Positions 32,443 to 56,408 of a stretch of 64,000 bases of DNA are shown here, in pieces. The notes under the pieces are model-generated. The model was given only the letters and a program-made list of their open reading frames with translations, had not been told where the DNA came from and searched no databases. Origin of the DNA: Bacteroidota bacterium. GTDB taxonomy: Bacteria > Bacteroidota > Bacteroidia > JABEUT01. Positions within the stretch are counted from its first letter, which is position 1, and every line of letters starts with the position of its first letter. The stretch is taken from the NCBI GenBank assembly GCA_013289475.1, contig JABCZW010000004.1, positions 3,596-67,595 of the forward strand, read 5' to 3'. Both the position numbers and the translations under genes were made by a program.

Positions 32443-33861
32443 TTATTTTATTGTAATGTTCATGGTTTGAGCAGTAATACCCGTATTATCTGTATTATTT
32501 TCTACCCAAACCTCAATATAATCATTAGGGTTAAGGAGCACAGTGCATAAAACAGGTACGGCTTGCTCGTCATTGCCGGTGGTTATTTTAGTAAACACCC
32601 CCGACTCTGGTAGCTGAACCCCATTTTTAAAAATAAAGAACGAATAATTCTTATTGTTTCCGGTTGAGGTAAAGGATACAGAGCATGTTACTATAAATGA
32701 TTGAGTTTTTCTTCCTGTATATGTTAGCCTGTTATTTGTAGGTGCTGTAACCCTAAACAGGTTTGTTGATGTAGTTGTTCCAAGTATTTTGGTTGGAGTG
32801 TTGTTGGCAGTAAAAGTTGTTACAGCAGGTGTTGTTATATAAAAATTGCCAGTGGCCTCATCATCTTTTTGGGTATTTAGCCCAATAGATTCAACTTCCC
32901 AATTATCTGTAAATGTACCTATAGAATAAGTGCCCGTTCCTGTATACAACAGCATTTTAAGCGAGCCATTAGCTATAGAGCTTATACCCGAAACATTTAT
33001 ACCGGTTGCGGTGTTAGTTGAACTTACATTACGCCCGCCACCCAGCAGTTGTATTATATTAAACTTGCCTGTAAAGGTTTCATAAGTATTATGGTTAGAT
33101 ATATCCCAAAAGTTATCATATATTCCAACAACACTATCGTTTTGAAAAGTGATACCATTAGTGTTGGCAAAATAGACAATATTGGAAAAAAAAACTTTAC
33201 CACCCACGCTTTGTATTGTTCCTAAACTATTGCAACCAATCATGTTGCAGTTTTGTACCAGCAGGTTTTTGATGGCGCCACTTGCATTTATATTAAATAA
33301 GCTTCCTGCAGGAGCTGATAGAGTAAGTGATAGAACACTTCCTGTATTTGCCCCTGTAAATAATTCTGAAGCGCCTGTGTAAACTAATTTATCATTTAAC
33401 CCATCGGCCCCTGTTATTTTGCATCCATTCAGGTCAATTTTATTTGTAAGTGTAATTGTGCCATTTATTTCGTACAGGGTTCCTGCAACTAATGTTATAA
33501 CCCCACTTACCGGGGCCGGGAAATCGGAAGCGGATTTTACCAGCACGTAATTTGTCCTTGTGTTGGCAGATGTAGTAATGGCCAGCCATTTACTTCCATT
33601 CCAAACATAAAAGCCATCGGCTACAGTTCCGCCTGTACTGTAAATAAGCATACCTGCAGGAACGGTGCCTGAAAGCGGAGCGACTGCATTAATACTATTT
33701 AGTGCCATTCGCGGCGCCAAAAATCCCTGGTTGGTACTCTCCAGCTCAAATAAGGAGTTTGTATTAATTGTGTTTGGGTTGTTACCTACTTTTACTTGTG
33801 CCGCTGTGGTAATTATTAATCCAAGAAATAAGCAGATACTTAAGAGGGTTTTAGTTTTCAT
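32443..33861 (-). CDS. secreted hypothetical protein
   Basis: 472 aa. Has a signal peptide (TTAAQ) and the N-terminal motif VGNNPNTINTNSLFELESTNQGFLAPRM. I saw no T9SS C-terminal domain. It lies 3 nt upstream of the T9SS cargo gene. Confidence 0.65.
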   Translation of the reverse strand: MKTKTLLSICLFLGLIITTAAQVKVGNNPNTINTNSLFELESTNQGFLAPRMALNSINAVAPLSGTVPAGMLIYSTGGTVADGFYVWNGSKWLAITTSANTRTNYVLVKSASDFPAPVSGVITLVAGTLYEINGTITLTNKIDLNGCKITGADGLNDKLVYTGASELFTGANTGSVLSLTLSAPAGSLFNINASGAIKNLLVQNCNMIGCNSLGTIQSVGGKVFFSNIVYFANTNGITFQNDSVVGIYDNFWDISNHNTYETFTGKFNIIQLLGGGRNVSSTNTATGINVSGISSIANGSLKMLLYTGTGTYSIGTFTDNWEVESIGLNTQKDDEATGNFYITTPAVTTFTANNTPTKILGTTTSTNLFRVTAPTNNRLTYTGRKTQSFIVTCSVSFTSTGNNKNYSFFIFKNGVQLPESGVFTKITTGNDEQAVPVLCTVLLNPNDYIEVWVENNTDNTGITAQTMNITIK

Positions 33862-34104
33862 ATATGTAGTTTAAATAATCAGTTCATGATTAGAGAACAA
33901 AAGTGATGACATTCGATTTATAAAGTATTATGCCATTAAAAGAGAATCTTACACATATTACATCTTTCAGTAGCCAATTGAAATTTGTTAATAATGCCGG
34001 AACAAATGTCAGCATGCTTTACACTATATACATTGATGATGTAACGAACCAGGGTAACGTATGTAACCAAACAGGTAAATGGTGTTGTAAAATATTTGCT
34101 GATT

Positions 34105-35565
34105 TTATAAAGCCTCGCCTGCATTAGGCAGCTTAATGGTAAAAGTGCTTCCCTTCAAGGGTTCGCTTTGCACCTGTATAGTTCCTTTTAGCCTTTCTAC
34201 CAGTTTTTTTACAATATATAAACCCAGGCCAGAACCATTGGCTCTGGGGTCGCCTTTAAAGAACATGTCAAATACTTTCGACCGTACTTCTTCATTCATA
34301 CCTGTGCCGTTGTCTTCTATGGTAATAATAATACCCGTATCGGTATTTTTTGCATTTATTTTAATAAATGAATTGGGTGAATCTCTTCTGTACTTAATTG
34401 CATTATTAAATAAGTTGTAAATAATAGAGTGCAAATACTGTTTATCGCAATAAAAATCTCCATCTACATTAATATCTGTTGAAACCTTTACTTTCATGAG
34501 CCCGGGTATATTATCTAAAGAGCGTATGATCTGTTCAACAGTATCTTCCAGGTCAATTTTTTCCATCGTGGTCTCAGAACGGTTTACCCGTTGCAGGTTA
34601 AGTAACGACATCAGCTGGTCTTCTATCTTCCGGTACGAGCGGTGTATTTTGTCAATATAATCAAGCGCTATTGTATCATTTACTTTAACCGAGGCCAGGT
34701 ATATATAGTTTTTTGCTGAATTGATCGGGCCGCGCAGGTCATGGCTCATTTGGTAAATGAGCATATTCAGTTGTTCTATTTTGGCTTCTGTTATTTTACG
34801 CGTCGAAATATCTTTCGATATTCCGTAAACCCGTATAAGTTTTCCTTCTTCATTTTTAACGGTATGAAGAAGTGTATGTAATATGCTTATTTTTCCATCA
34901 TCGGCACGTACTATGCGATACTCAATATCTAATGATTTTCCTTTTGTTTCGGTATCGGTAATTTGCTTGTAAACATTGTCCCTGTCTTCAGGATGAATAA
35001 GCCCTATATAAGCTATAAAACTGGCCGGAAAATCGGAGCTTACACCAAAAAGTTTACGCAGGCCCTCCGACCAGAAAATTTCATTCGTAACAAAATCGGC
35101 GTTCCAGTTTCCTATTTTGGCCATGTACTGTGCTTCAGAAAGGAGGCGTTCTGTTTGAACAACTTTCTCCTGGGCACTTTTTCGTTCAGTAATATCTCTT
35201 ACAATACCTTCTACTTTAACCAACTTACCATCATTATCAAGTGTAGGAATTATTTTTCCTTCTATCCACTTTATGTTTTTGTTTTTATGAATGATGCGGT
35301 ACTGGTTAAAAACCATTCTTCCACTTAACAGTTCATCGTCGTTGGTTTCAATAATATGTTTATCATCAGGGTGTATTACCTCTTTCCATAAATTTATATT
35401 GCCTATAAACTCAGCCTGTGTATATCCATACATTCTTTCGCATGCCTGCGACATTTGCAATACCCGGTATTCTTTCATATCGACTGAAAAAAACACTTCA
35501 TCAACATATTCGAAGAGATGTTCGGGGTCGCTGAATGTTTTTTTTAATTCCACAGCGTTACTCAT
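34105..35565 (-). CDS. cytoplasmic PAS-domain sensor histidine kinase
   Basis: 486 aa. Two PAS/PAC segments, the H-box MSHDLRGP and the ATPase boxes NNAIKY, DNGTGM and GSGLGL. No TM helices. Confidence 0.85.
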   Translation of the reverse strand: MSNAVELKKTFSDPEHLFEYVDEVFFSVDMKEYRVLQMSQACERMYGYTQAEFIGNINLWKEVIHPDDKHIIETNDDELLSGRMVFNQYRIIHKNKNIKWIEGKIIPTLDNDGKLVKVEGIVRDITERKSAQEKVVQTERLLSEAQYMAKIGNWNADFVTNEIFWSEGLRKLFGVSSDFPASFIAYIGLIHPEDRDNVYKQITDTETKGKSLDIEYRIVRADDGKISILHTLLHTVKNEEGKLIRVYGISKDISTRKITEAKIEQLNMLIYQMSHDLRGPINSAKNYIYLASVKVNDTIALDYIDKIHRSYRKIEDQLMSLLNLQRVNRSETTMEKIDLEDTVEQIIRSLDNIPGLMKVKVSTDINVDGDFYCDKQYLHSIIYNLFNNAIKYRRDSPNSFIKINAKNTDTGIIITIEDNGTGMNEEVRSKVFDMFFKGDPRANGSGLGLYIVKKLVERLKGTIQVQSEPLKGSTFTIKLPNAGEAL

Positions 35566-46626: not shown

Positions 46627-47340
46627 CTACCTGCCGATGAGGAAGACTGTCGGATGATCGTTGAAGCTTTGTTTCTCAGAACGCCACTCCTTTATTGTTT
46701 TTGTGTGAATGTACTCGGTGGATAAAGTGATATCGGAAGCAATACAGAGAAGGGTTTCAGGCCTGCAGGTGCTTAGTATATCTTGCAGCAAAGCGTCGTT
46801 TCGGTAAGGGGCTTCTATAAATATCTGGGTTTGGTTCTCTTTATAAATGGCTGTTTCAAGTTGCCTTATTTTCAATCCTTTTTCAGGCTGTTTCTTAGGT
46901 AAGTAACCATGAAATGCAAACCCTTGTCCGTTCAGGCCCGATGATATAAGGGCGAGCAGGATAGAGGATGGGCCAACCAGTGGCACCACTTTAATACCAT
47001 GTTTGTGCGCAAGCCTGACTACCTCAGCTCCCGGGTCAGCAATGCCCGGGCAGCCTGCATCAGACAGTAACCCAACATTCTTGCCTTTTAGCAGGCCATC
47101 AATATAGGGCTGTATTTGTCCTGATGAAGTGTGTTCGTTAAGTAAATGAAATAAGATTGAGTCGATTGGTTTGCTTGCCATCTTTACCAGAAATCTTCGT
47201 GCACTGCGCAGGTCCTCTACAATAAATTCATCCAACGATTGTATGATTTCTTTATTGGAGTTAGGTATAGAGCGCTCAATTACTGAATCGCCCAACAAAC
47301 TCGGTATGAGATATAAAGTACCTTTAACTATATTACTCAT
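46627..47340 (-). CDS. SAM-dependent methyltransferase, tetrapyrrole-methylase (RsmI-like) fold
   Basis: GTLYLIPSLLGD, LSDAGCPGIADPG and GPSS motifs. The start is set at MSNIVKG, 4 nt after the LMW-PTP stop. Confidence 0.7.
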   Translation of the reverse strand: MSNIVKGTLYLIPSLLGDSVIERSIPNSNKEIIQSLDEFIVEDLRSARRFLVKMASKPIDSILFHLLNEHTSSGQIQPYIDGLLKGKNVGLLSDAGCPGIADPGAEVVRLAHKHGIKVVPLVGPSSILLALISSGLNGQGFAFHGYLPKKQPEKGLKIRQLETAIYKENQTQIFIEAPYRNDALLQDILSTCRPETLLCIASDITLSTEYIHTKTIKEWRSEKQSFNDHPTVFLIGR

Positions 47341-47344
47341 CAAA

Positions 47345-47827
47345 TCAGGGGAGTAATTCTCCCTTTTTAATTTTGTCTGCAATAGTAGTTGCAGCTTTAT
47401 CTATTATATGGTAAACCTTATCAAAGCCCTTCTCATCACCATACCATGGGTCAGGTACTGAATCATTTGAGCCGGGATGAGCAGCATCGAGAAACAGCCT
47501 CACTTTGTCTTTATCTTTCTCATCTTCTGCCAATAACATTATATCAGCATAATTCGCGCTATCCATAACATATATACGGTCGAACTTTGCAAAGTCAGTA
47601 CTTCTGAATTGTTTTGCCCTGTTAGAAGAAACATCAAGGCTATGGGTCATGGCATTGGCAATGGTGCGTGCATCGGGTGCTTCTCCGGCATGTACAGCAG
47701 ATGTGCCGGCAGAATCGACTTCAATGCCTGTTATTTTCCTTTCTTCCAGTTTCTTTATCATCAAAAACTTTGCTAATGGCGAACGGCAGATATTTCCGTG
47801 ACAAACCATTATTATCTTCTTATTCAT
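47345..47827 (-). CDS. low-molecular-weight protein-tyrosine phosphatase
   Basis: 160 aa with the active-site loop VCHGNICRSP and a DP motif near the C-terminal third. Confidence 0.88.
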   Translation of the reverse strand: MNKKIIMVCHGNICRSPLAKFLMIKKLEERKITGIEVDSAGTSAVHAGEAPDARTIANAMTHSLDVSSNRAKQFRSTDFAKFDRIYVMDSANYADIMLLAEDEKDKDKVRLFLDAAHPGSNDSVPDPWYGDEKGFDKVYHIIDKAATTIADKIKKGELLP

Positions 47828-47883
47828 AGTAAATTCAATAATTACAAATGTATAAGTAATTCTTACAGGGGAATATTAAATAC

Positions 47884-47947
47884 GTGATTTGTGTAACATT
47901 TCCCTGAGCTTTTGTAATGTTTCCTGATGCCAGGTAAATCACTTTTG
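47884..47947 (+). promoter_or_regulatory. shared promoter-like module P1 (upstream of lipoprotein gene 47985)
   Basis: GTGATTTGTGTAAC-N15-TGTAATG-N20-CACTTTTG, with the ATG 38 nt downstream. Confidence 0.6.
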
Positions 47948-47984
47948 CACCGTGAAAATTATTTCACGATTAAATAAAAAAAAG

Positions 47985-48830
47985 ATGAAGACACTAGTAT
48001 ACATTTCAATAGCAATGCTGCTTATTAATGGCTGTAGCGATAAACAAGAAAAGCAAATTAAGGCACTGAGCATGAATGATTCTGCGTTAATGAATGAAAA
48101 TGCGCAGAAGGATTCATCCATTATAGCTTATGTAAAATCAATGAATGAGATACAGGATAATCTTGATAGTATAAAAGCCGCTGAAAACATATTGTCAATA
48201 AACACAAAAGGCAATGAGAATAAGAAAAGTATTGTAGGCGACATTAGGAGTATAAATATTCAGTTGCTTAAATACCATAGAGAAATATACTCATTGGAAA
48301 GGAAATTGAAATTAGTGAATAGTCAAAATAAAGAACTGCGGAAACTGGAAGGGCATCTTTCAAGTGAGCTGGCAGAAAGGGATTCAATGATAACTGTATT
48401 GCAAGGGAAGCTTGCTAAAATGAATGATTCGCTTGTGACCGTTATTAAACAATTCAATGATAGTATGGTTGTTATTAATAAGCTAAACGGTAAAATTACT
48501 GATATGACAAATGAAATGAATACAGTTTATTATTCAATAGGAACTGTTAAGGAATTTAAAAAGAATGGTGTTATTACCAAGGAAGGCGGGTTTGCCGGAA
48601 TAGGCCGAACCACTGAAATGAAGAAAAACTTTAATACACAGTATTTTACCAAAGCAGACATGGAGAAATTACTCGTAATACCATTTATGAGCAAGTTTGA
48701 AAAACTGGTAACCAACCATCCTGCAAGTTCCTATACTATTACCAATAATCATAAGTCAGATTCATTGATCATTAAATACCCTGGATTATTCTGGAGTATA
48801 TCAAAATATCTGGTAGTTATTGTGAAATAA
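47985..48830 (+). CDS. hypothetical coiled-coil lipoprotein
   Basis: The start MKTLVYISIAMLLINGC carries a lipobox and lies 38 nt after the P1 box. The middle region is rich in heptad-like repeats. Confidence 0.7.
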   Translation: MKTLVYISIAMLLINGCSDKQEKQIKALSMNDSALMNENAQKDSSIIAYVKSMNEIQDNLDSIKAAENILSINTKGNENKKSIVGDIRSINIQLLKYHREIYSLERKLKLVNSQNKELRKLEGHLSSELAERDSMITVLQGKLAKMNDSLVTVIKQFNDSMVVINKLNGKITDMTNEMNTVYYSIGTVKEFKKNGVITKEGGFAGIGRTTEMKKNFNTQYFTKADMEKLLVIPFMSKFEKLVTNHPASSYTITNNHKSDSLIIKYPGLFWSISKYLVVIVK

Positions 48831-48874
48831 CCTTGAATATTTCTTAAAATTTTAACGATACTAAAAGCCGAGAA

Positions 48875-49189
48875 ATGGTACTGGCATACGAACTGAATAT
48901 TGCGGGACTGCTTTTTGATATTGTAGGTGCAATTGGCATATTCAAAACAAAAATAATAGGCCTGCAGAAGACATCAGAAACTAAAGTGTTAAGGCGTAAC
49001 CCAAGTAGCAATCTTAACCTGGAGAAGAAAATTGATGAGTTGGAAAGTGAGATAAATGATATTATTGGAGCCACCAACCAGAAAAATAAAGGCAACGACA
49101 AAAAAGCAATAATCTTCTTCTTGTTAATATTTTCAGGTTTTTTATTACAGGTAGTTGCCTCGTTCGTAAATATTATATCCACAAAATAG
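48875..49189 (+). CDS. hypothetical small membrane protein
   Basis: 104 aa with two hydrophobic helices flanking a charged coiled segment. It lies 44 nt after the lipoprotein gene. Confidence 0.5.
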   Translation: MVLAYELNIAGLLFDIVGAIGIFKTKIIGLQKTSETKVLRRNPSSNLNLEKKIDELESEINDIIGATNQKNKGNDKKAIIFFLLIFSGFLLQVVASFVNIISTK

Positions 49190-49270
49190 TTTATAATTAA
49201 TTCCGTGTGCTTATTAAATGAAATATGTTTTAATGCACCATGAAATTTCTCAAGCAACATATATAAATGA

Positions 49271-49334
49271 GTGAAACATGTAAGATTGTTTAAAGTACAT
49301 ATAAAGCTTTTAACATGAAATGCCCTCACCTTTG
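49271..49334 (+). promoter_or_regulatory. shared promoter-like module P2 (upstream of csbD-like gene)
   Basis: GTGAAACATGTAAG-N15-TATAAAG-N20-CACCTTTG, with the ATG 40 nt downstream. Confidence 0.5.
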
Positions 49335-49373
49335 TATCGTATTAATTATTAATCTTTTAATCTAAAAAATAAA

Positions 49374-49667
49374 ATGGAAACCCCAAACAAGACAACAGAA
49401 GCAACTCAGATTAAAACCCCTGAGGCAACACAAAACAAAACTTCAGAAACAACCCAAAGCAAACCTTCTCAAACTTTTAAAGTTACCGGCAATTGGGAAG
49501 ATCAATCAAAGAAACTTAAAACTAAGTTTACCGAACTTACCGATTCAGATTTGAAACTGGAAACCGGCAAAGAATCTGAAATGTTGGGCCGTGTACAAAC
49601 CAAGCTGAACAAAAACCGCGAAGAAGTTATTGACATTATTAAGCAAGGTCAGGAGCAAACAGTGTAA
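49374..49667 (+). CDS. CsbD-family general stress protein
   Basis: 97 aa. After a Thr/Gln-rich N-terminus comes GNWEDQSKKLKTKFTELTDSDL...GKESEMLGRVQTKL, a CsbD-like pattern. Confidence 0.7.
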   Translation: METPNKTTEATQIKTPEATQNKTSETTQSKPSQTFKVTGNWEDQSKKLKTKFTELTDSDLKLETGKESEMLGRVQTKLNKNREEVIDIIKQGQEQTV

Positions 49668-49737
49668 TTAATTCCAATTAAATGGACAAAGGAGTATTTG
49701 AAATATAGTACAAAATCATTTAATAGGCCACAACAAA

Positions 49738-49767
49738 GGACAGGAACTTAAAAGCCTGTCTTTTTTT
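49738..49767 (+). terminator. probable rho-independent terminator after csbD-like gene
   Basis: GGACAGG-aacttaaaag-CCTGTCT (one G-U pair) followed by T7. Confidence 0.5.
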
Positions 49768-49868
49768 GTTTACTCCTGAAATAACGCTTAACGCGTTACT
49801 AACCTGCTATATATAGGTATAAGTATTCAATGACATATATGTTTATTATAAGCTAAAGTGTAAAATAT

Positions 49869-49932
49869 GTGATTTGTGTAACTATTCGGAGTACTTATGT
49901 AAGGTATTTAAGGTTAAATGAACGCATCTTTG
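49869..49932 (+). promoter_or_regulatory. shared promoter-like module P3 (upstream of AraC-kinase-regulator operon)
   Basis: GTGATTTGTGTAAC-N15-TGTAAGG-N20-CATCTTTG, with the ATG 46 nt downstream. Confidence 0.6.
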
Positions 49933-49977
49933 TTCATATTAATAAATCTCCTGAATTTGAAACTGTACATTAAATAT

Positions 49978-50541
49978 ATGGTAAGTGCCCGCTGCAAAAT
50001 GGCAGTAAAAGAAGAGCTGAAGAAGCTTGGCTTGCACTTTATGGTTGTGGATTTGGGAGAAGTAGAGGTGATGGAAGAGATGTCGGTTGAGCAGCTTAAA
50101 TTATTGAATATAGGCTTACACAGCTCGGGTCTTGAATTAATGGATGACAAAAGAGGGGTGCTGATTGAAAAAATTAAGAACGCAATTATTGAAATGATAC
50201 ATCATTCGGATGAAATAATTAAAACAAATTTCTCTGATTATTTAAGCGAAAAATTAAAGTACGATTATACATACCTGTCAAACTTATTTACTGAGGTACA
50301 GGGAACTACAATTGCCCAATTCATTACTGCACATAAAATAGAGAGGATAAAGGAATTAATGATGTACGATGAACTGAATATTACTGAAATTGCCTGGAAA
50401 ATGAATTATAGCAGCGTGGCGCATTTATCTAATCAATTTAAAAAATTTACAGGCCTTACACCAACACAATTTAAGCAGATGAAAGACAAGAAACGAAGCC
50501 CGATAGAAGAGATTGGGAACTTAAATGGTACAATAAGTTAA
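49978..50541 (+). CDS. AraC-family transcriptional regulator
   Basis: Start set at MVSARCKMAVKEELKKLGL. The C-terminal dual HTH reads YLSNLFTEVQGTTIAQF...ITEIAWKMNYSSVAHLSNQFKKFTGLTPTQF. Confidence 0.82.
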   Translation: MVSARCKMAVKEELKKLGLHFMVVDLGEVEVMEEMSVEQLKLLNIGLHSSGLELMDDKRGVLIEKIKNAIIEMIHHSDEIIKTNFSDYLSEKLKYDYTYLSNLFTEVQGTTIAQFITAHKIERIKELMMYDELNITEIAWKMNYSSVAHLSNQFKKFTGLTPTQFKQMKDKKRSPIEEIGNLNGTIS

Positions 50542-50569
50542 CAATGCCTTTACTTTATATAAGAAAGAA

Positions 50570-52588
50570 ATGAAAACAGCTCAGGAGCAGTCCCAATATG
50601 CAAGAAGCTTAATAGAAGCTACCCTGGACCCCTTGGTTACTATTAATATTGAAGGTATAATTACAGATGTGAACGAAGCAATGGTTAAGGCTACTGATAA
50701 AGCCCGTAGTAAGATTATCGGAACTAATTTTACTGATTATTTTGTAGAAACAAAAGAAGCATTTAATATATTCAAAGAAGTTTTTAAAAAAGGGTTTGTG
50801 TTAAATTATCCGCTAACCATAATAGATGGTGTATTGACGGATGTATTATTAAATGGTTCAGTTTTTAAAGATTTAGATAAAAAAGTGCTTGGAGCAGTTA
50901 TAGTTGCAAGAGATATTACCGGATTGAAAAGGATTGAAAAGGAATTGACAGAAGCCAAAGTGGTTGCAGAATTGGCTACCGGATTTGCAGAAGAAGCCCA
51001 AAGTAAAGCCGAAAGTGCTACAAAAATAGCTGAGGAGGCTACCCGGATAGCGGAAGATGCAGTTAAGGCTAAGCAGCAGTTTTTGTCGAACATGAGCCAT
51101 GAGATACGTACACCTATGAATGCTATTATAGGGTTCACAAAAGTAGTATTGAAAACTGACCTTTCGGCAAAGCAAAACGAATACCTGACCGCGATAAAGA
51201 TGAGCGGAGATGCGCTAATTGTACTTATTAACGATATACTTGATCTTGCAAAGGTTGATGCTGGTAAAATGACGTTTGAACAATCTCCGTTTAAAATGGC
51301 ACTGTCTATATCGGCAATGCTGCATTTATTTGAAACTAAGATACAGGAAAGGAATTTGGAGTTGGTGAAGGAATACGACAGCAAAATTCCGGAAGTATTG
51401 ATCGGTGACCCTGTACGGTTACACCAGATTATTTTGAATCTGGTTAGTAACGCAGTTAAGTTTACCACTATAGGGAAAATAGTAGTTGCTGTTAAATTAA
51501 TAAGTGAAGATGAGGATAATGCAATTATTGAGTTTGCAGTTACAGATACCGGAATAGGAATACCACAGAATAAGATAGAAAAGATCTTCGAGAATTTCCA
51601 ACAAGCATCAAGTGGAACTTCAAGGTTATATGGGGGCACAGGCTTAGGACTGGCTATTGTTAAACAACTGGTAGAATCGCAAGGCGGAGTTATTAAAGTG
51701 AAAAGCGAAATAGGTACAGGCTCAACATTCAGTTTTACTCTTAGTTTTCAAAAAGCAAAAGGTAAATTTGAAGTGGAGCCTGAATTATTGGAGCTCGATA
51801 AGGAAATAAAGAATATAAGAATATTGGTTGTAGAGGATATTACCCTCAACCAATTACTTATGAAAACATTATTGGATGATTTCGGGTTTGAGCGTGATAT
51901 TGCGGCTAATGGTAAAATAGCAATTGAAAAATTACAGAATCAAAATTATGACATCATTTTGATGGACTTGCAGATGCCTGAGATGAATGGGTTTGAAGCT
52001 ACCGAATACATACGTAACACAATGCATTCTAAAATACCAATAATAGCTTTAACGGCCGATGTAACTACTGTTGACCTGGCAAAATGCAAAGCAGTTGGGA
52101 TGAATGATTATATAGCAAAACCTATTGATGAAAGAGTACTATACAGTAAAATAATCGGGTTGATAAAAAAACCTCTTCTTCTTCCTGTGGGGGATACTGA
52201 AAATAAAAAGAATCAAAGTAAGAAACTAAGATGTATTGATATGGCTTATTTAATGCAACGTACAAAATCTAATCCTAAATTGATGATGGAAATGATTTCG
52301 GTTTACCTGGAGCAAACACCCCCATTGGTTCATGCAATGAAAAAGGGTTTCCAGGATAAGGACTGGGAATCGGTATATGCAGCAGTGCATAAAATGATTC
52401 CTTCTTTTTCAATAATGGGCATTAGTATTGATTTTGAGAATATGGCAAAAAAAGTTCAGGAATATGCGAGCACACAAAAGCAAACAGATGGAATACCTGG
52501 TTTGGTTATACAGCTTGAGGACATTTGTACCCAGGCATGCTTAGAATTGACAGAGGAGTTTAATATGATTAAAAACGCCAAAGTATGA
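50570..52588 (+). CDS. soluble hybrid sensor histidine kinase (PAS-HisKA-HATPase-REC-HPt)
   Basis: 672 aa. H-box SHEIRTPMNAI, ATPase boxes NAVKFT, DTGIGI and GGTGLGL, REC (ILMDLQMPEMNG), and a C-terminal HPt-like helix bundle (AVHKMIPS). No TM helices. Confidence 0.88.
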   Translation: MKTAQEQSQYARSLIEATLDPLVTINIEGIITDVNEAMVKATDKARSKIIGTNFTDYFVETKEAFNIFKEVFKKGFVLNYPLTIIDGVLTDVLLNGSVFKDLDKKVLGAVIVARDITGLKRIEKELTEAKVVAELATGFAEEAQSKAESATKIAEEATRIAEDAVKAKQQFLSNMSHEIRTPMNAIIGFTKVVLKTDLSAKQNEYLTAIKMSGDALIVLINDILDLAKVDAGKMTFEQSPFKMALSISAMLHLFETKIQERNLELVKEYDSKIPEVLIGDPVRLHQIILNLVSNAVKFTTIGKIVVAVKLISEDEDNAIIEFAVTDTGIGIPQNKIEKIFENFQQASSGTSRLYGGTGLGLAIVKQLVESQGGVIKVKSEIGTGSTFSFTLSFQKAKGKFEVEPELLELDKEIKNIRILVVEDITLNQLLMKTLLDDFGFERDIAANGKIAIEKLQNQNYDIILMDLQMPEMNGFEATEYIRNTMHSKIPIIALTADVTTVDLAKCKAVGMNDYIAKPIDERVLYSKIIGLIKKPLLLPVGDTENKKNQSKKLRCIDMAYLMQRTKSNPKLMMEMISVYLEQTPPLVHAMKKGFQDKDWESVYAAVHKMIPSFSIMGISIDFENMAKKVQEYASTQKQTDGIPGLVIQLEDICTQACLELTEEFNMIKNAKV

Positions 52589-53019
52589 AAAATGAAAATA
52601 AAATAAGGCTTTTCCTGGTAGATGATGACGCTTTGTTTTTAAAATCATTAGAAGTTGAATTTTTAGAACATGCTGATTTTGATATTAAAACATTCGCAAG
52701 TGGTGAGCTTTGTATTGCTGAGTTGTCAAAAGCCCCTGATGTTATCATTTTAGATTATCACCTTAATGGTATTGATAAAAATGCCATGAATGGAGTTGAT
52801 ACGTTAGATAAAATTAAAGAATTTAATCCCGATATCCCAGTTGTAATGCTCTCATCACAGGATAAAATAGATGTTGCAGTTAACTGCATGCATCATAAGG
52901 CTTTTGACTATGTGGTGAAAAGCGAAACCGCTTTTACCCGCTTACAAAAGATCATTACTACTATTTTCCATTACAAGAAAATGGAAAAGACACTTAGCTG
53001 GTATATGGAAAGGATGTAG
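52585..53019 (+). CDS. single-domain response regulator (REC only)
   Basis: 144 aa with LFLVDDD and IILDYHL. There is a 4-nt ATGA overlap with the kinase gene. Confidence 0.82.
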   Translation: MKNENKIRLFLVDDDALFLKSLEVEFLEHADFDIKTFASGELCIAELSKAPDVIILDYHLNGIDKNAMNGVDTLDKIKEFNPDIPVVMLSSQDKIDVAVNCMHHKAFDYVVKSETAFTRLQKIITTIFHYKKMEKTLSWYMERM

Positions 53020-53055
53020 CCCTTTCATAAACTTCTTTTTTCCCCTTTCTGATAC

Positions 53056-53119
53056 GTGAATGATGTAAGCTTTTCCGAAGGTTGTGTAGTAATTGTAGAG
53101 CGGTATTGCCGCACCTTTG
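53056..53119 (+). promoter_or_regulatory. shared promoter-like module P4 (upstream of DUF3494 gene)
   Basis: GTGAATGATGTAAG-N15-TGTAGTA-N20-CACCTTTG, with the ATG 42 nt downstream. Confidence 0.5.
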
Positions 53120-53160
53120 TACTGATGCAAAAATTATTTTGCAACTTAAATTTAAAGAAA

Positions 53161-53916
53161 ATGAAAAAGTTAAAAGCAATAACCGCCACTGCAATTGCAT
53201 CGGTTGTTTTAATGGCCGCATGTACCAAAACAAATACATCTCCTGCCGCATCAACCGGCACAAACCCAGTTGTGATACCTGTTCAAGCTACTACTCAAGC
53301 TTCGGTATCACTTGGCACTGACGCCTCTACTATGGCGGTTCTTGCAGGTTCAGATGTTACAAGCACAGGAGCGACAAATATTACAGGCGATCTTGGCCTT
53401 AGCCCGGGTACTTCTGTAGGCGGGTTTCCTCCGGGAATATTAAATGGAACAAAATATATCAATGGCCCAATAGCGAGCCAGGCAAAGCTTGACCTGACTT
53501 CAGCATATAATGATGCTGCAGGCAGAACTTGTACTGATATAGTAACATTATCCGGTAATATTGGCGGGTTAACATTAACTCCGGGGCTTTACAAGTCAAC
53601 ATCATCGCTTGCTGTATCTTCCGGCGACCTTACATTTGATGCAAAGGGAAACGCGAGTGCGGTATTTATAATTCAAATAGCATCTACACTAACTGCTACT
53701 TCTGGCCGTAAAGTAATCCTTGCAGGAGGTGCACTAGCATCTAATATATTCTGGCAGGTGGGCAGCTCTGCAACCTTTGGAACTACTTCTGTTTTTAAAG
53801 GGACTATTATGGCAATGCAGTCCATTTCGTTCGATACAGGAGCATCGCTTGATGGCAGGGCTCTTGCAAGAATAGGTGCCGTTACATTGGCAGGAAATAT
53901 AATAGTTAAACAATAA
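53161..53916 (+). CDS. DUF3494 / ice-binding-protein-family lipoprotein
   Basis: The start MKKLKAITATAIASVVLMAAC carries a lipobox. Family motifs follow: ILAGS.VT.TG.T.ITGDLG.SPG, LDLTSAYNDA, LTPGLYK, NIFWQVGSSAT and GRALA...VTL. Confidence 0.8.
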   Translation: MKKLKAITATAIASVVLMAACTKTNTSPAASTGTNPVVIPVQATTQASVSLGTDASTMAVLAGSDVTSTGATNITGDLGLSPGTSVGGFPPGILNGTKYINGPIASQAKLDLTSAYNDAAGRTCTDIVTLSGNIGGLTLTPGLYKSTSSLAVSSGDLTFDAKGNASAVFIIQIASTLTATSGRKVILAGGALASNIFWQVGSSATFGTTSVFKGTIMAMQSISFDTGASLDGRALARIGAVTLAGNIIVKQ

Positions 53917-53936
53917 CCATTTATTTTAACATTAAA

Positions 53937-53965
53937 AGCGTTGCATATTCAGCAACGCTTTTTTT
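53937..53965 (+). terminator. rho-independent terminator after DUF3494 gene
   Basis: AGCGTTGC-atattca-GCAACGCT followed by a T-run. Confidence 0.8.
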
Positions 53966-54003
53966 ATGCCTGCCAGACAAAAATGTAATGGAAACAGATA
54001 AAC

Positions 54004-54067
54004 GTAATTTATGTAACTAAAGCGTACAGATCTGTAATGCATAAAGGTTGGAAGGTATGCACCTTTG
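54004..54067 (+). promoter_or_regulatory. shared promoter-like module P5 (upstream of lipoprotein/lmo0937-like genes)
   Basis: GTAATTTATGTAAC-N15-TGTAATG-N20-CACCTTTG, with the ATG 40 nt downstream. Confidence 0.6.
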
Positions 54068-54106
54068 ACGCGTGAAAATTAATTCACAATTAAATAAAAA
54101 CAAACT

Positions 54107-54697
54107 ATGAAAAATCTAATTAAATACCTCTCGGTAAGTATAGTAGCATCTGTTCTGCTGTCTTCCTGCGGCTCAAACTTTTCAATAACAAAGCGCCATT
54201 ATAATAATGGTTATTATATTGATTATACCAGGAACAATAAAGCAGTTCCTAATGCAGAGGAAAAGACTGCCCAGGTGAAGACACAAACTCCTTCGATATC
54301 TGAACAGGCCCCGGTTGAAGGAAATACCACAAACCAAATACAGCCGCAAAGCAATAAGCAAAATAATGCTTTGGGCATATTTAGTAATAGTAAAAAAGAA
54401 GCTAAAGCTAATTTACAGACAGTTACTAAAACACTACCAATAAATAAGGTTGGTTTTGCCGGAAGCAATGCTGCAAAAGACAAGCAAGCATCTTTCGAAG
54501 CGCCGAATGTAATTGCCAATTCTGCTGACAGGGATGATGGCAGGGCATTAAGTTTTTTATGGCTTGTTATCGTTATTATTTTAATTATTTGGTTAATTGC
54601 AATTATAGCAGGCGGTTTTGGCCTTGGTGGTTTAATCAATCTGCTGCTTTTGATAGCATTGATCTTACTTATATTATGGTTGTTGAGAATTATTTAA
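54107..54697 (+). CDS. lipoprotein with C-terminal lmo0937-like double-TM module
   Basis: 196 aa. Has a lipobox (LLSSCG), a low-complexity Gln/Asn/Lys-rich linker, and the C-terminal LWLVIVIILIIWLIAIIAGGFGLGGLINLLLLIALILLILWLL. Confidence 0.7.
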   Translation: MKNLIKYLSVSIVASVLLSSCGSNFSITKRHYNNGYYIDYTRNNKAVPNAEEKTAQVKTQTPSISEQAPVEGNTTNQIQPQSNKQNNALGIFSNSKKEAKANLQTVTKTLPINKVGFAGSNAAKDKQASFEAPNVIANSADRDDGRALSFLWLVIVIILIIWLIAIIAGGFGLGGLINLLLLIALILLILWLLRII

Positions 54698-54729
54698 TTA
54701 GTAACGTTTAAAATAAAAAAATAAAAATC

Positions 54730-54882
54730 ATGGGAAATCTATTGTATATTATCGCGGTAATATTGGTTATTAGTTGGGCTATCGGTTTTATCGGCTACGG
54801 AGTAGGGGGCCTCATTCACGTTCTGCTTGTAATAGCGGTAATAGCAGTAGTCCTCAGGCTTATACAAGGAAAGCCACTTTAA
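54730..54882 (+). CDS. lmo0937-family small membrane protein (50 aa; too short for the ORF track)
   Basis: I translated it by hand: MGNLLYIIAVILVISWAIGFIGYGVGGLIHVLLVIAVIAVVLRLIQGKPL*. It resembles the C-terminus of the preceding ORF. Confidence 0.7.
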   Translation: MGNLLYIIAVILVISWAIGFIGYGVGGLIHVLLVIAVIAVVLRLIQGKPL

Positions 54883-54920
54883 CCAATAGCCTTAATAGGC
54901 TTATGATCTATACGTAAATA

Positions 54921-54950
54921 AAAAGAGAGGCCATTTGGCCTCTCTTTTTA
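54921..54950. terminator. bidirectional rho-independent terminator between the lmo0937-like gene and dnaA
   Basis: AAAAGAGAGGCC-attt-GGCCTCTCTTTTT has an A-tract on one side and a T-tract on the other. It sits between convergent genes. Confidence 0.8.
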
Positions 54951-54971
54951 TCTGTATATTAAATATTATTT

Positions 54972-56408
54972 TTATTGGTAATTACTCAGGGTAATTTTCT
55001 TTTCCAGTTCAAGTATATAGCCTTTAAAGCGCTTGTCAGTATCAATCAGGTTGTTCACTGTTTTGCATGCATGCAGCACAGTAGCGTGGTCCTTACCGCC
55101 ACATTGCAGCCCAATACTTGCAAGTGATGATTTGGTAAAGCTTTTGGCAAAATACATAGTTATCTGGCGAGCCTGTACAACCTCTCTCTTACGTGTCTTT
55201 GACTTGATCATTTCAATAGGCAAGCCAAAGTAATCGCACACTACCTTTTGTATATAGTCAATAGAAACTTCGCGGGCAGTGTTCTTCACAAATTTGTCAA
55301 TCATTTGCTTGGCAAGCTCCAGTGTAATAGCCTTTTTATTGAGCGAAGATTGAGCAACCAATGATATCAATGCACCTTCAAGTTCGCGAACATTGCTGTT
55401 AATACTGTAAGCAAGATATTCTACTACATCGCTCGATATGTCAAGTCCTTCGGTATATATTTTGCGCTGAAGTATAGCTATTCGTGTTTCAAGGCCCGGT
55501 ATTTGCAGGTCGGCAGCAAGGCCCCATTTAAAGCGCGAAAGCAGGCGTTGTTCCATACCTTCAATTTCTACCGGAGGCTTATCGGAAGTAAATACCAGTT
55601 GCTTGTTGTTTTGATGCAGGTGATTAAATATGTGGAAGAACACATCTTGTGTTTTTTCTTTTTTAGCCAGGAACTGTACATCATCAACTATTAACACATC
55701 TATCATCTGGTAGAAGTTGATAAAATCGTTTTGTGTATTGTTCTTGGTAGCATCAATAAACTGGGTAGTGAATTTTTCTGATGATAAATAAAGAACAGTC
55801 TTATTAGGAAGGTTATTCTTTATTTCTAAGCCGATAGCATGTGCAAGGTGAGTTTTACCCAGGCCTACACCACCATATATAAAGAGCGGGTTGAAAGATG
55901 TGCCACCCGGCTTTTGCGCTACTGCAAATCCGGCAGAGCGTGCAAGACGGTTACAATCTCCTTCAATAAAGTTCTCGAAAGAATAATTCGGGTTAAGCTG
56001 TGGTGCAACATCTACCTTCTTTAACCCGGGAATTATAAACGGGTTACGAATAGGGTTCTTATTAAGATCAATAGGAATATTAACAGGTTGTCCTTTTGCT
56101 GCCTGCTTGTTAGAGCCAGGAATTTTTACAGTGTAAGGTTTAGCATTGCGGGTATTCTCCATAACAATGCTGTACTCTAAGCGTGAATCAGAGCCTAACT
56201 CTCTTTTAATAGCCTTTTTAAGTAAAGTTATGTAATGTTCCTCAAGGTACTCGTAAACGAATTGACTGGGCACCTGTATGGTCAGTACATTATCTTTTAA
56301 CTTGATTGGCTTAATAGGCTCGAACCACGTCTTAAAGCTTTGTGGTGTCACGTTATCCTTGATAATCGTAAGACAGTGTTCCCAAACTTTAACGTGCGTT
56401 TTTTCCAT
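54972..56408 (-). CDS. dnaA: chromosomal replication initiator protein DnaA
   Basis: 478 aa. N-terminal W..CL..IK......F.TWF, the AAA+ motif GGVGLGKTHL, and a C-terminal DNA-binding domain (GGKDHATVLHACK). Confidence 0.97.
   Translation of the reverse strand: MEKTHVKVWEHCLTIIKDNVTPQSFKTWFEPIKPIKLKDNVLTIQVPSQFVYEYLEEHYITLLKKAIKRELGSDSRLEYSIVMENTRNAKPYTVKIPGSNKQAAKGQPVNIPIDLNKNPIRNPFIIPGLKKVDVAPQLNPNYSFENFIEGDCNRLARSAGFAVAQKPGGTSFNPLFIYGGVGLGKTHLAHAIGLEIKNNLPNKTVLYLSSEKFTTQFIDATKNNTQNDFINFYQMIDVLIVDDVQFLAKKEKTQDVFFHIFNHLHQNNKQLVFTSDKPPVEIEGMEQRLLSRFKWGLAADLQIPGLETRIAILQRKIYTEGLDISSDVVEYLAYSINSNVRELEGALISLVAQSSLNKKAITLELAKQMIDKFVKNTAREVSIDYIQKVVCDYFGLPIEMIKSKTRKREVVQARQITMYFAKSFTKSSLASIGLQCGGKDHATVLHACKTVNNLIDTDKRFKGYILELEKKITLSNYQ

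Follow-up and report, generated by a model that had tools for sequence, protein, structure and literature searches.

The locus examined here raises the question of why five neighbouring transcription units in one Bacteroidota genome should carry the same 64-nt sequence upstream of their start codons, and whether this sequence belongs to a single island of genes or to a regulatory system of wider occurrence. The original prediction had described a module of three blocks (A, B and C, at offsets 0, +29 and +56) repeated on the plus strand, and a pattern scan of the window (the whole 64,000-nt stretch of DNA that we analysed) reproduced all five copies, with their sequences and offsets, at the coordinates given for them. 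These are P1 (47884..47947; an exact match scoring 44.1 bits with a weight matrix derived from other genomes alone), P2 (49271..49334; 40.5 bits), P3 (49869..49932; 51.8 bits), P4 (53056..53119; 50.2 bits) and P5 (54004..54067; 36.3 bits), all with zero mismatches to the degenerate pattern. The same scan located a sixth copy, P6, on the minus strand at 33898..33961 (30.9 bits), in which the single mismatch lies in block B (CATAATA). The description of the module as a feature of the island is therefore correct for five of the six copies in the window, but not for P6, which lies outside it, nor for the system as a whole, which is phylum-wide. Chance matches in 100 dinucleotide shuffles came to 0.00 at two mismatches and 0.02 at three, and when the 64 kb were scanned with the other-genomes matrix, the six sites scored 31–52 bits with no further site above 8 bits, while 20 shuffles peaked below 0.

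The genes that follow the plus-strand copies lie on the same strand. The P1 unit encodes a Cbp1-family coiled-coil lipoprotein (47985..48830; NCBIfam NF052320, E = 2.7e-54) and a small membrane protein taken from the ORF list which has no Pfam or NCBIfam family match (48875..49189). P2 is found 5' of a gene for a CsbD-like protein (49374..49667; the Pfam CsbD hit is weak, with tblastn matches in 26 loci) which is followed by an intrinsic terminator (49730..49769; -14.8 kcal/mol, z -4.1), and P3 is found 5' of an AraC–kinase–receiver operon. P4 precedes the gene for an ice-binding-like (PF11999) lipoprotein (53161..53916; E = 6.3e-62), which also has an intrinsic terminator at its 3' side (53934–53962; -15.3 kcal/mol, z -4.8). 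The P5 unit (54107..54882) consists of genes for a lipoprotein with a DUF5670-like tail (54107–54697) and an lmo0937-family peptide (54730–54882), with a third terminator located before dnaA (54918–54951). The P6 unit, on the minus strand, is an ORF for a 472-aa secreted protein of unknown family (32443..33861; no Pfam or NCBIfam match), and its ATG at 33861 comes 36 nt after block C. Across the window copies, 36–45 nt intervene between block C and the start codon.

The original prediction would have failed had the module occurred only here, or had it been no more common upstream of genes than inside them, and neither proved to be the case. Pattern scans of genomes and metagenomes identified at least 324 unique copies (all such totals are lower bounds), nearly all from Bacteroidota and covering five orders, in both orthologous and distant loci, with no Bacteroides genome among the module matches listed. 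Copies lying mostly within an ORF made up only 8 of 176, though ORFs of 100 aa or more take up 78% of these loci. Positions left free by the search pattern were also conserved in the copies from other genomes, conservation being confined to the three blocks with the bases between them unconstrained. The scans also bore out the rigid N15/N20 spacing and fixed start-codon distance which had been anticipated: when the spacers were left free, 128 of 135 copies were canonical and the other seven were shorter by 1 bp, the A–B spacer being 15 nt in all 135 (and at 177 of 189 block A sites), while the B–C spacer had its fixed length in 153 copies and another length in three. In the other-genome copies the distance to the downstream ATG peaks at 35–41 nt past block C.

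The gene content that follows the modules is similarly conserved, and the expectation of a shared set of stress and envelope gene families was upheld, with the qualification that the label "stress" comes from gene content alone. The same downstream families recurred in two independent samples (CsbD, ice-binding-like proteins, OmpA-type lipoproteins, YtxH, Usp and the AraC gene), with CsbD the most common; a module was found at 23 of 26 other loci with CsbD genes, and at 29 of 35 loci with ice-binding-like genes. The conserved regulon also takes in BON proteins, beta-barrel envelope proteins and lmo0937-like peptides. This phylum-wide conservation of gene content suggests a sigma-independent general or envelope stress programme, although induction by stress remains an inference.

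We consider it probable that the module is a sigmaA promoter with a weakened -7 box, activated by an AraC-type protein from two repeats and controlled by a kinase and receiver, which serves a stress regulon. Each copy would be a promoter at which the housekeeping sigmaA of Bacteroidota (the use of which is inferred) depends on an activator, with block C (nAYCTTTG, usually CACCTTTG) acting as a -7 box weakened at its first base. Within block C, the A and TTTG hardly vary and keep a constant position, and the bases at "nn" are fixed to YC. The original prediction had block C beginning with C, which is so in all five island copies but elsewhere is a preference and not a rule (in an unconstrained search of 135 copies, C was found in 75 or 56%, T in 29 or 21%, G in 25 or 19%, and A in 6 or 4%). 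The predicted transcription start lies 5–6 nt past block C at about module position +68/+69 (around 47952–47954 for P1); in published work, the B. thetaiotaomicron TACCTTTG box is found by dRNA-seq 6 nt 5' of the transcription start, and the reported position of sigmaA boxes is -12 to -5. The ATG mode of 35–41 nt past block C would then give a 5' UTR of ~30–36 nt, and published 5' UTR medians are 24 and 32 nt. About half of the copies have a stem-loop that begins right past block C at module +67/+68 and shows covariation (56% of pair cells are paired). In P1 this is GUGAAA-AUUA-UUUCAC, which coincides with the predicted transcript 5' end (47951..47968; -7.1 kcal/mol, z -4.8), and equivalents lie on the same strand at 53126–53143 (P4) and 54072–54087 (P5). 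Such a short 5' structure on roughly half of the transcripts is likely to act as a stabiliser.

No -33 TTTG is present 19–21 nt 5' of the -7 box (positions +32..+37 are AACAct, and few copies have G at +40); its place is taken by a pair of direct repeats of 14 bp each, with a period of 21 bp. The distal repeat GTGAATnATGTAAC is block A (positions 0–13) and is centred at ~-62 from the predicted start, while the proximal repeat, nnnAaTTRTGTAAC, ends in block B (AaTTRTGTAAC being positions 24–34), 21 nt 5' of block C, and is centred at ~-41 with a span of ~-48..-34 counted from the inferred start. Block B had been assigned to the -33 place, and the proximal repeat does occupy the position of the missing TTTG. 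The class II AraC/XylS-type geometry proposed for the TGTAA repeats also stands up, as far as can be said without binding data: the spacing is rigid, two direct half-sites are found ~21 bp (two helical turns) apart, and the proximal of these reaches up to or into the -35-equivalent element, given the inferred start. Two AraC protomers may thus sit on one face of the DNA, with the proximal one standing in for the -33 contact in class II activation.

The most likely binder of blocks A and B, though binding is only inferred, is the AraC-family protein of the P3 operon (49957..50541, plus strand; HTH_18 E = 1.8e-18). The start originally given for this gene, ATG 49978, should most likely be replaced by TTG 49957 on the basis of codon-level conservation, making a protein of 194 aa with an ~85-aa N-terminal alpha/beta domain of unresolved fold and a two-HTH DNA-binding domain, the structure model of which matches the DNA-binding domains of GadX, MarA, SoxS and AraC. 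It is followed on the same strand by genes for a cytoplasmic PAS hybrid histidine kinase (50570..52588; PAS-HisKA-HATPase-REC plus a C-terminal region which aligns with the HPt part of TorS and ArcB) and a 144-aa single-domain response regulator (52585..53019; REC only, the start of which overlaps the kinase stop codon), both assigned from domain hits. The kinase and receiver presumably set the activity of the activator, this control being inferred, and P3 upstream of the operon would provide positive feedback in the window. The operon is 65–82% identical across orders (full-length or nearly full-length kinase orthologues are 62–77% identical over ~20 loci, and receiver orthologues 64–82% over 23 loci). 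We note that a probable counterpart is found in Flavobacterium psychrophilum (AraC of 179 aa, hybrid kinase and 144-aa receiver; orthology was not checked by sequence), and that this and its neighbours are among the most weakly expressed genes in all 32 published conditions, which include several stresses.

The link that had been drawn between this operon and the modules is observed beyond the window, as the three genes are found alongside modules at about one in four 8-kb loci and the operon often has a module upstream. It remains conceivable, though we think it unlikely, that the promoter is as described but that another transcription factor, encoded elsewhere, binds blocks A and B, with the linked AraC protein a mere member of the regulon. 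There are no binding data, linkage alone does not establish binding, our view was limited to 8-kb slices around modules, and a module lies 5' of only 12 of 27 orthologous AraC genes (~45%) with none upstream in an AraC subfamily at 59–67% identity, which indicates that self-control is not universal and leaves the cognate paralogue uncertain. Against this, no DNA-binding family other than AraC is repeatedly linked to modules within these slices, the 21-bp direct-repeat geometry fits the AraC-type domains of this phylum (PMC3878776), and the extreme conservation of the AraC protein (at least 8000 homologues, the best 120 being 76–100% identical) parallels that of the motif.

A different promoter assignment, in which an alternative or ECF-type sigma factor would recognise block A as its -35 and block B as its -10 element (TGTAAC-N15-TGTAAY), with the start just past block B and block C in a leader of ~70 nt, seems to us improbable. 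TGTAAC does resemble an AAC-type -35 and TRTAAT a -10 hexamer, alternative sigma factors run stress regulons in other phyla, and a stationary-phase sigma factor has been proposed for Bacteroides by Ryan et al. However, no recurrent sigma or anti-sigma gene was found downstream or nearby in 240 loci, with sigma families absent from 130 downstream genes and 935 neighbouring ORFs; block B repeats block A in direct orientation, which is not the case for -35 and -10 elements, and a 15-nt spacer without a CGT-type -10 is atypical of ECF promoters. The leader would also be twice the phylum median length, and would leave unexplained the sigmaA -7 signature of block C at a rigid distance and the stem-loops directly past it.

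There is very little to recommend a structured cis-regulatory RNA (a riboswitch or leader) whose transcription would start further upstream: although the element is conserved 5' of start codons and the downstream hairpin covaries, this covariation does not extend beyond the optional +68..+83 hairpin, with none within positions 0–63, RNAalifold predicted no pairs from 90 copies, there is no Rfam match, and the blocks are not mutually complementary and are separated by unconstrained sequence. The occurrence of several copies per locus, clustered in islands, might also suggest remnants of a MITE-like mobile or repetitive element spread by transposition without any regulatory role, but this can be dismissed almost entirely given conservation of the three blocks only with free intervening bases, the lack of terminal inverted repeats and target duplications, a fixed orientation and distance to start codons, and the same downstream gene families across five orders.

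With the sigmaA-dependent, AraC-activated promoter retained as the preferred reading, we tentatively propose, as a possibility which still falls short of being the likelier case, that these promoters belong to an undescribed and sigma-independent general stress response of Bacteroidota, in which a PAS hybrid kinase and receiver act through a small AraC-type activator on dozens of class II promoters. The gene families fit the content of a general stress regulon, and the probable F. psychrophilum counterpart is silent in the 32 conditions. If the proposal is true, the targets would be the CsbD, YtxH, Usp, BON, OmpA-type and ice-binding-like genes. To our knowledge, RpoS, sigmaB and EcfG are absent from this phylum. 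We found no prior description of this regulatory system in the searchable literature, in agreement with the suggestion that the regulon is undescribed.

General stress responses elsewhere are run by alternative sigma factors, including sigmaB in Firmicutes, RpoS in Proteobacteria and PhyR-NepR-EcfG in Alphaproteobacteria. The system here resembles these in having CsbD, YtxH, Usp, BON/OsmY-like, Dps-like and envelope proteins in the regulon, in the cytoplasmic PAS kinase or kinases presumed to feed a receiver, and in control genes within a positive feedback loop, but differs in the absence of a linked alternative sigma or anti-sigma and in control apparently through a transcription activator. 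We rejected a sigma-based response of the sigmaB/RpoS/EcfG kind on the criterion of a dedicated sigma factor (no sigma gene is linked in the loci inspected and the -7 box is sigmaA-like), and also an ECF promoter, which would have an AAC -35 and CGT-type -10 ~16–17 nt apart and a self-controlled sigma/anti-sigma pair (here a 15-nt spacer separates the blocks, the candidate -10 reads TRTAA, and those loci have no linked sigma gene). Compared with the canonical sigmaA promoter (-33 TTTG / -7 TAnnTTTG), block C keeps the A, the TTTG and the usual start-codon distance, but the first base is mostly C, nn is YC, and TGTAAC replaces the -33 TTTG. A non-canonical Bacteroidota promoter motif is also known in B. 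thetaiotaomicron PM2, which is tied to stationary-phase and oxidative-stress genes and is near-palindromic with -10 and -30 elements, mostly at internal or antisense starts (Ryan et al. 2020, PMC7366714); no sequence relation to our module has been established.

Like MarA, SoxS and Rob, the regulator would be a small AraC-type activator of a dispersed stress regulon, and the model of its DNA-binding domain superimposes on MarA and SoxS; these proteins, however, act as monomers at one 20-bp site of variable position, unlike the two sites in a rigid 64-bp frame seen here. Class II activation from tandem direct repeats is known for AraC (I1-I2 at araBAD), XylS (at Pm), RhaS/RhaR and MelR. Shared with these are two asymmetric direct-repeat sites ~21 bp apart on one DNA face, a proximal site at the -35-equivalent region of a promoter without a good upstream element, and a regulator which is often self-controlled. 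The differences lie in the regulator, which at only 194 aa carries an uncharacterised N-terminal domain and no cupin or sugar-binding domain, in a promoter belonging to the Bacteroidota -33/-7 type, in the partnership with a hybrid kinase and a receiver-only protein, and in the targets, which would be stress and envelope genes and not a catabolic operon. The AraC-type domains of Bacteroides HTCS proteins have predicted motifs of 12–16 bp direct repeats with ~21 bp between sites (Ravcheev et al. 2013, PMC3878776), and the sequence matches include a solved HTCS DNA-binding region. We rejected an HTCS-type AraC-domain regulon, as there are three separate proteins, no periplasmic sensor and no polysaccharide-utilisation targets, leaving only the motif geometry in common. 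The pathway logic of kinase, receiver and AraC domain is also alike, but where an HTCS is one fused periplasm-sensing polypeptide serving one polysaccharide locus, separate cytoplasmic proteins here would serve a dispersed phylum-wide regulon and, if our reading is true, would in effect be a split YesN/HTCS-type regulator.

Five forward-strand copies of a 64-nt module, with blocks A, B and C at offsets 0, +29 and +56, had been proposed as a shared promoter of the units in one island, and re-reading of the window confirmed the positions (P1–P5, starting at 47884, 49271, 49869, 53056 and 54004), sequences and offsets of all five. A degenerate summary of these modules, GTRANNNRTGTAAS-N15-TRTAR-N22-CAYYTTTG, matched each of them with no mismatches, and when used to search the window it also found a sixth copy (P6) on the minus strand outside the island (33961..33898, with CATAATA as block B), 36 nt upstream of an ORF for a 472-aa secreted protein. 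Shuffled sequence gave 0.00–0.02 matches to the pattern, and a weight matrix trained only on copies from other genomes scored the six window sites at 31–52 bits, the rest of the window at no more than 8 bits and shuffles below 0. The observation is therefore real and far beyond chance, and it was slightly incomplete. We note that P6 follows closely behind a gene for a PAS histidine kinase (34105–35565, minus strand), and that the two ORFs behind it (32443–33861 and 31069–32439, both minus strand) encode secreted proteins of unknown family.

Scanning one genome per prokaryotic species with the exact pattern recovered at least 120 loci, and about 116 of the 120 records among the matches listed are labelled Bacteroidota. 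These matches include Bacteroidales (among them Prolixibacteraceae, Paludibacter, Williamwhitmania and Salinivirgaceae), Chitinophagales (including Saprospiraceae and Lewinellaceae), Cytophagales, Flavobacteriales (including two named Flavobacterium species and Flagellimonas) and Sphingobacteriales, with none from Bacteroides or Prevotella among the matches listed in this exact-pattern scan. Carriers available in culture include Flavobacterium xinjiangense, F. fryxellicola, Chitinophaga pinensis, Pontibacter humidus and Flagellimonas lutimaris. The other four records listed are labelled Akkermansia, Saccharibacteria (two) and 'bacterium' (L024, L026, L028 and L077); since L024, L026 and L028 carry homologues of the island kinase and receiver (approximately 70–80% identical in L026 and L028), and L028 an AraC gene homologue as well, we infer from sequence that the module contigs in metagenome-assembled genomes labelled Akkermansia, Candidatus Saccharibacteria or 'bacterium' are probably mis-binned. 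The copies among the matches listed are strongly conserved at positions which the search pattern left free, and give the phylum consensus AAATGT-GTGAATnATGTAACTTATT...AaTTRTGTAACAcTT...(about 20 nt)...CACCTTTGTa..GTGAAAATT. The original prediction of a regulon is supported by conservation beyond the island in several orders; the module is phylum-wide and not a feature of the island alone.

The module is also rigidly built. In 907 kb of DNA from the matches listed, TRTAA follows block A by exactly 15 nt at 177 of 189 sites, and the distance between blocks B and C is fixed in 153 copies compared to three which are 1 bp shorter. A separate metagenome scan left both spacers free (11 x 11 combinations), and among the matches listed 128 of 135 copies have the canonical spacing, seven have a B–C distance one bp less, and no other combination occurs. 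The base before AYCTTTG in this free-spacer sample is C in 75, T in 29, G in 25 and A in six of the copies listed, and the C that begins block C in all five island copies is therefore preferred and not invariant. Blocks A and B are parts of two 14-bp direct repeats with a period of 21 bp, which agrees with the AraC/XylS class II geometry suggested earlier; AATnRTGTAAC is found in both, and the distal repeat has an additional GTG and is flanked by AAAT(G)T. A near-palindrome around block B (AAAGT..ACTTT, +22..+39 of the module) exists at the level of the consensus only, with no excess pairing and no covariation. A CRP/FNR-like site (TGTGA-N6-TCACA) was considered for block A and rejected, since the ATG that would have to serve as spacer is strongly conserved (+7 is A in 96% of the copies among the matches listed, and TG, which is fixed by the search pattern, is present in 6/6 window copies) and its right arm reads TAACT. 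Inspection also ruled against block C as a sigma-54 element, for which the GG/GC spacing is wrong.

The intergenic position claimed for the window modules is general, with only 8 of 176 modules among the matches listed lying mostly within an ORF in loci that are 78% covered by ORFs of at least 100 aa, and the first downstream ATG peaks 35–41 nt after block C in genome and metagenome samples alike. No consensus pairing was predicted by RNAalifold across 90 aligned copies, positions within the module share negligible mutual information, and an Rfam search of 47000–55500 in E-value mode returned only sub-threshold chance matches, none of them at the modules. A sigma-70-type promoter scan found 29 sites where 30.8 were expected, and is uninformative for Bacteroidota. 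The module behaves like a promoter rather than like an RNA or a repeat, and we hold with high confidence that it is a conserved promoter defining a regulon. In Bacteroides thetaiotaomicron dRNA-seq tables a TACCTTTG box lies upstream of the mapped start and ends 6 nt from it (PMC7366714), and in a Flavobacterium psychrophilum study the sigmaA box spans -12 to -5. Applying these published distances, transcription is predicted to start at +68/+69 of the module, which would leave a 5' UTR of about 30–36 nt, compared to published phylum medians of 24 and 32 nt. Numbered from this predicted start, block C would occupy -13..-6, and the proximal and distal repeats would be centred at approximately -41 and -62, covering about -48..-34 and -69..-55, respectively. 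Centres near -41 and -62 are the classical positions of class II and class I activators, respectively. TTTG was not found at the -33 position of the module consensus.

An inverted repeat, GTGAAA-ATTn-TTTCAC, begins at +67/+68 in roughly half of the copies. Its pairing reaches 56% compared to 45% in shuffles, with 0/500 shuffles equalling the observed value, and falls to 33–44% when the stem partners are slid by 1–3 columns; covariation across the region as a whole is strongest at position pairs 68–83 and 70–81, and compensated variants such as GTGGA..TCCAC are seen. In the window it follows P1 (47951–47968, -7.1 kcal/mol, z -4.8), P4 (53126–53143) and P5 (54072–54087). A 5'-terminal stem-loop is consistent with transcription starting directly behind block C, and the transcript-end structure GUGAAA-AUUn-UUUCAC probably stabilises the mRNA, though a palindromic operator is not excluded. 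It should be noted that the bottom strand of the stem, GTGAAT, repeats the first six bases of block A, and whether the element serves to stabilise the mRNA, as an operator or as an additional activator half-site is undecided.

Pfam annotation of 130 genes, each the first after a module in another genome (among the matches listed), identified CsbD (17), Ice_binding (13), AraC HTH_18 (11), OmpA (10) and outer-membrane beta-barrel (9) families, followed by DUF6600, YtxH and DUF5670 (3 each), Usp and REC (2 each), and BON and DUF4142 (1 each), with Dps-like and YceI-like proteins also found by inspection. The metagenome sample is similar (CsbD 20, ice-binding-like 16, small cupin 10 and coiled-coil lipoproteins 8 among the matches listed). 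Conversely, using a matrix trained on metagenome copies, the module was found directly upstream of 23/26 CsbD, 29/35 ice-binding-like and 7/8 'PPWGPAGY' protein genes in the genome loci listed. When all 935 ORFs from these loci were clustered, the commonest were histidine kinases, ice-binding-like proteins, OmpA lipoproteins, receiver, AraC and CsbD proteins, and no recurrent sigma factor or non-AraC DNA-binding family was found amongst them. The window units fit these recurring families: P1 precedes a Cbp1-type coiled-coil lipoprotein and a small membrane protein, P2 a CsbD-like protein, P3 an AraC–kinase–receiver operon, P4 an ice-binding-like lipoprotein, and P5 a lipoprotein/DUF5670 and an lmo0937-like peptide. 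Intrinsic terminators lie between units at 49730–49769, 53934–53962 and 54918–54951. The last of these is strong and bidirectional and ends the island immediately beside dnaA (54972–56408, minus strand), so that in this genome the stress island adjoins the replication initiator gene. Conservation, spacing, intergenic position and recurrent families together support and enlarge the original interpretation of a shared promoter module and an undescribed Bacteroidota regulon.

The AraC protein of the P3 operon has at least 8000 homologues, and the best 120 clusters are 76–100% identical over their full length, an unusually strong conservation for a transcription factor. Among the 120 genome loci listed, tblastn found AraC in 30, the hybrid kinase (50570–52588 in the window) in approximately 20 at 62–77% identity over full or nearly full length, and the 144-aa receiver (52585–53019) in 23 at 64–82% identity, the usual order being AraC–(PAS proteins)–kinase–receiver. 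We note that many genomes have one or two stand-alone PAS-domain ORFs between the AraC and kinase genes which resemble the N-terminal PAS of the kinase (e.g. L059:4419-5306, L089:3885-5192 and L112:2424-2987), and that these are absent from the window. In an AlphaFold model of the AraC protein (pLDDT 80), a standard two-HTH AraC domain superimposes on GadX, MarA, SoxS and AraC and is preceded by a small alpha/beta domain and a long helix. Folded alone (pLDDT 64), the N-terminal domain gave no significant fold match, and its weak likeness to CopA/Atx1 metal-binding domains (E>0.1) makes an 'HMA-like' label a mere lead. The closest solved relatives by sequence include the AraC-type output domains of the receiver-containing regulators YesN and AraT and of a hybrid two-component protein. 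The AraC gene, first placed at ATG 49978, most likely starts at TTG 49957 and encodes 194 aa, in agreement with the public gene call; this is inferred from codon-level comparison of 24 orthologues, in which a seven-codon extension, (M)KLYIKY (49957–49977), before the MVSxRCK methionine is conserved with synonymous variation, starts with TTG, ATG or GTG, and in 4/24 directly follows an in-frame stop. A weak TTG start may keep the basal level of a master regulator low.

Twelve of the 27 AraC orthologues listed with enough upstream sequence have a module upstream, and P3-type positive feedback is therefore common but not universal. Those with modules belong mostly to a 70–80%-identity subfamily with kinase and receiver genes behind, while a 59–67%-identity subfamily has no module; which paralogue is the primary activator is undecided. 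Both lie side by side in two loci (L049:2118-3277 and L007:5069-7308), and such pairs suggest a constitutive sensor copy and a feedback-amplified copy. In the absence of binding data, we consider it fairly likely that the linked AraC protein is the activator and binds as two protomers. Protomers at approximately -62 and -41 would replace the -33 contact of sigmaA, and the signal would pass from the PAS hybrid kinase to the receiver-only protein and on to the AraC-type activator, with the receiver–activator link being inferred. Overall, the modules form a promoter class of rigid construction, present throughout the phylum, inferred to depend on an activator and linked to a highly conserved set of AraC, hybrid kinase and receiver genes.

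Whether the system is a general or envelope stress response is evenly balanced in our judgement, this label being drawn from gene content. One lead calls for caution here. In F. psychrophilum THCO2-90 the operon THC0290_1150-1153 encodes a 179-aa AraC-family protein together with a hybrid kinase and a receiver of 144 aa; it is weakly expressed in all 64 samples from 32 conditions, and shares the list of weakly expressed genes with many neighbours including a Usp gene (PMC9723704 and Table S4 therein). The surrounding approximately 75 kb (THC0290_1129-1210) account for a large share of the genes on this list (PMC9723704 Table S4). This operon is a probable counterpart of the island operon, though it is a look-alike whose orthology has not been checked by sequence. 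Should the orthology hold, common laboratory stresses leave the system tightly off, which fits an activator-dependent promoter and would explain the absence of the motif from transcriptome studies.

Bacteroidota rank among the major bacteria of the gut, soil, fresh water and the sea; their non-canonical promoters are poorly understood, and we know of and found no general stress regulator defined for them. With the 64-bp signature, regulon members can be predicted in any genome or metagenome of the phylum, the three-gene control module is 62–82% identical across orders and can be deleted, and the structural prediction of AraC protomers in place of the sigmaA -33 contact is clear. A Bacteroidota general or envelope stress response would become a directly testable question, and synthetic biology would gain a tightly off, activator-dependent Bacteroidota promoter.

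As the original prediction supposed, no description of this motif or regulon was found in the full-text literature searched, also when the exact block A strings were used, although subscription journals were largely outside this scope and a prior description is not excluded. None of the F. psychrophilum motifs SM1-6 matches the module, and no module-like sequences were found in the portion of the start-site table available to us. PM2, a non-canonical B. thetaiotaomicron promoter motif that might be offered as prior art, is not equated with the module; unlike the module, it is near-palindromic and found mostly at internal and antisense starts (PMC7366714). Mechanistically this would be AraC-type class II activation, which is already known, while the system itself appears new, as do its architecture and scope. 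The geometry of the module is that predicted for the AraC-type domains of Bacteroides hybrid two-component proteins, whose sites are 12–16-bp direct repeats approximately 21 bp apart (PMC3878776), and together with the sequence relatives of the AraC protein this suggests that the system is an unbundled, cytoplasmic version of the hybrid two-component design.
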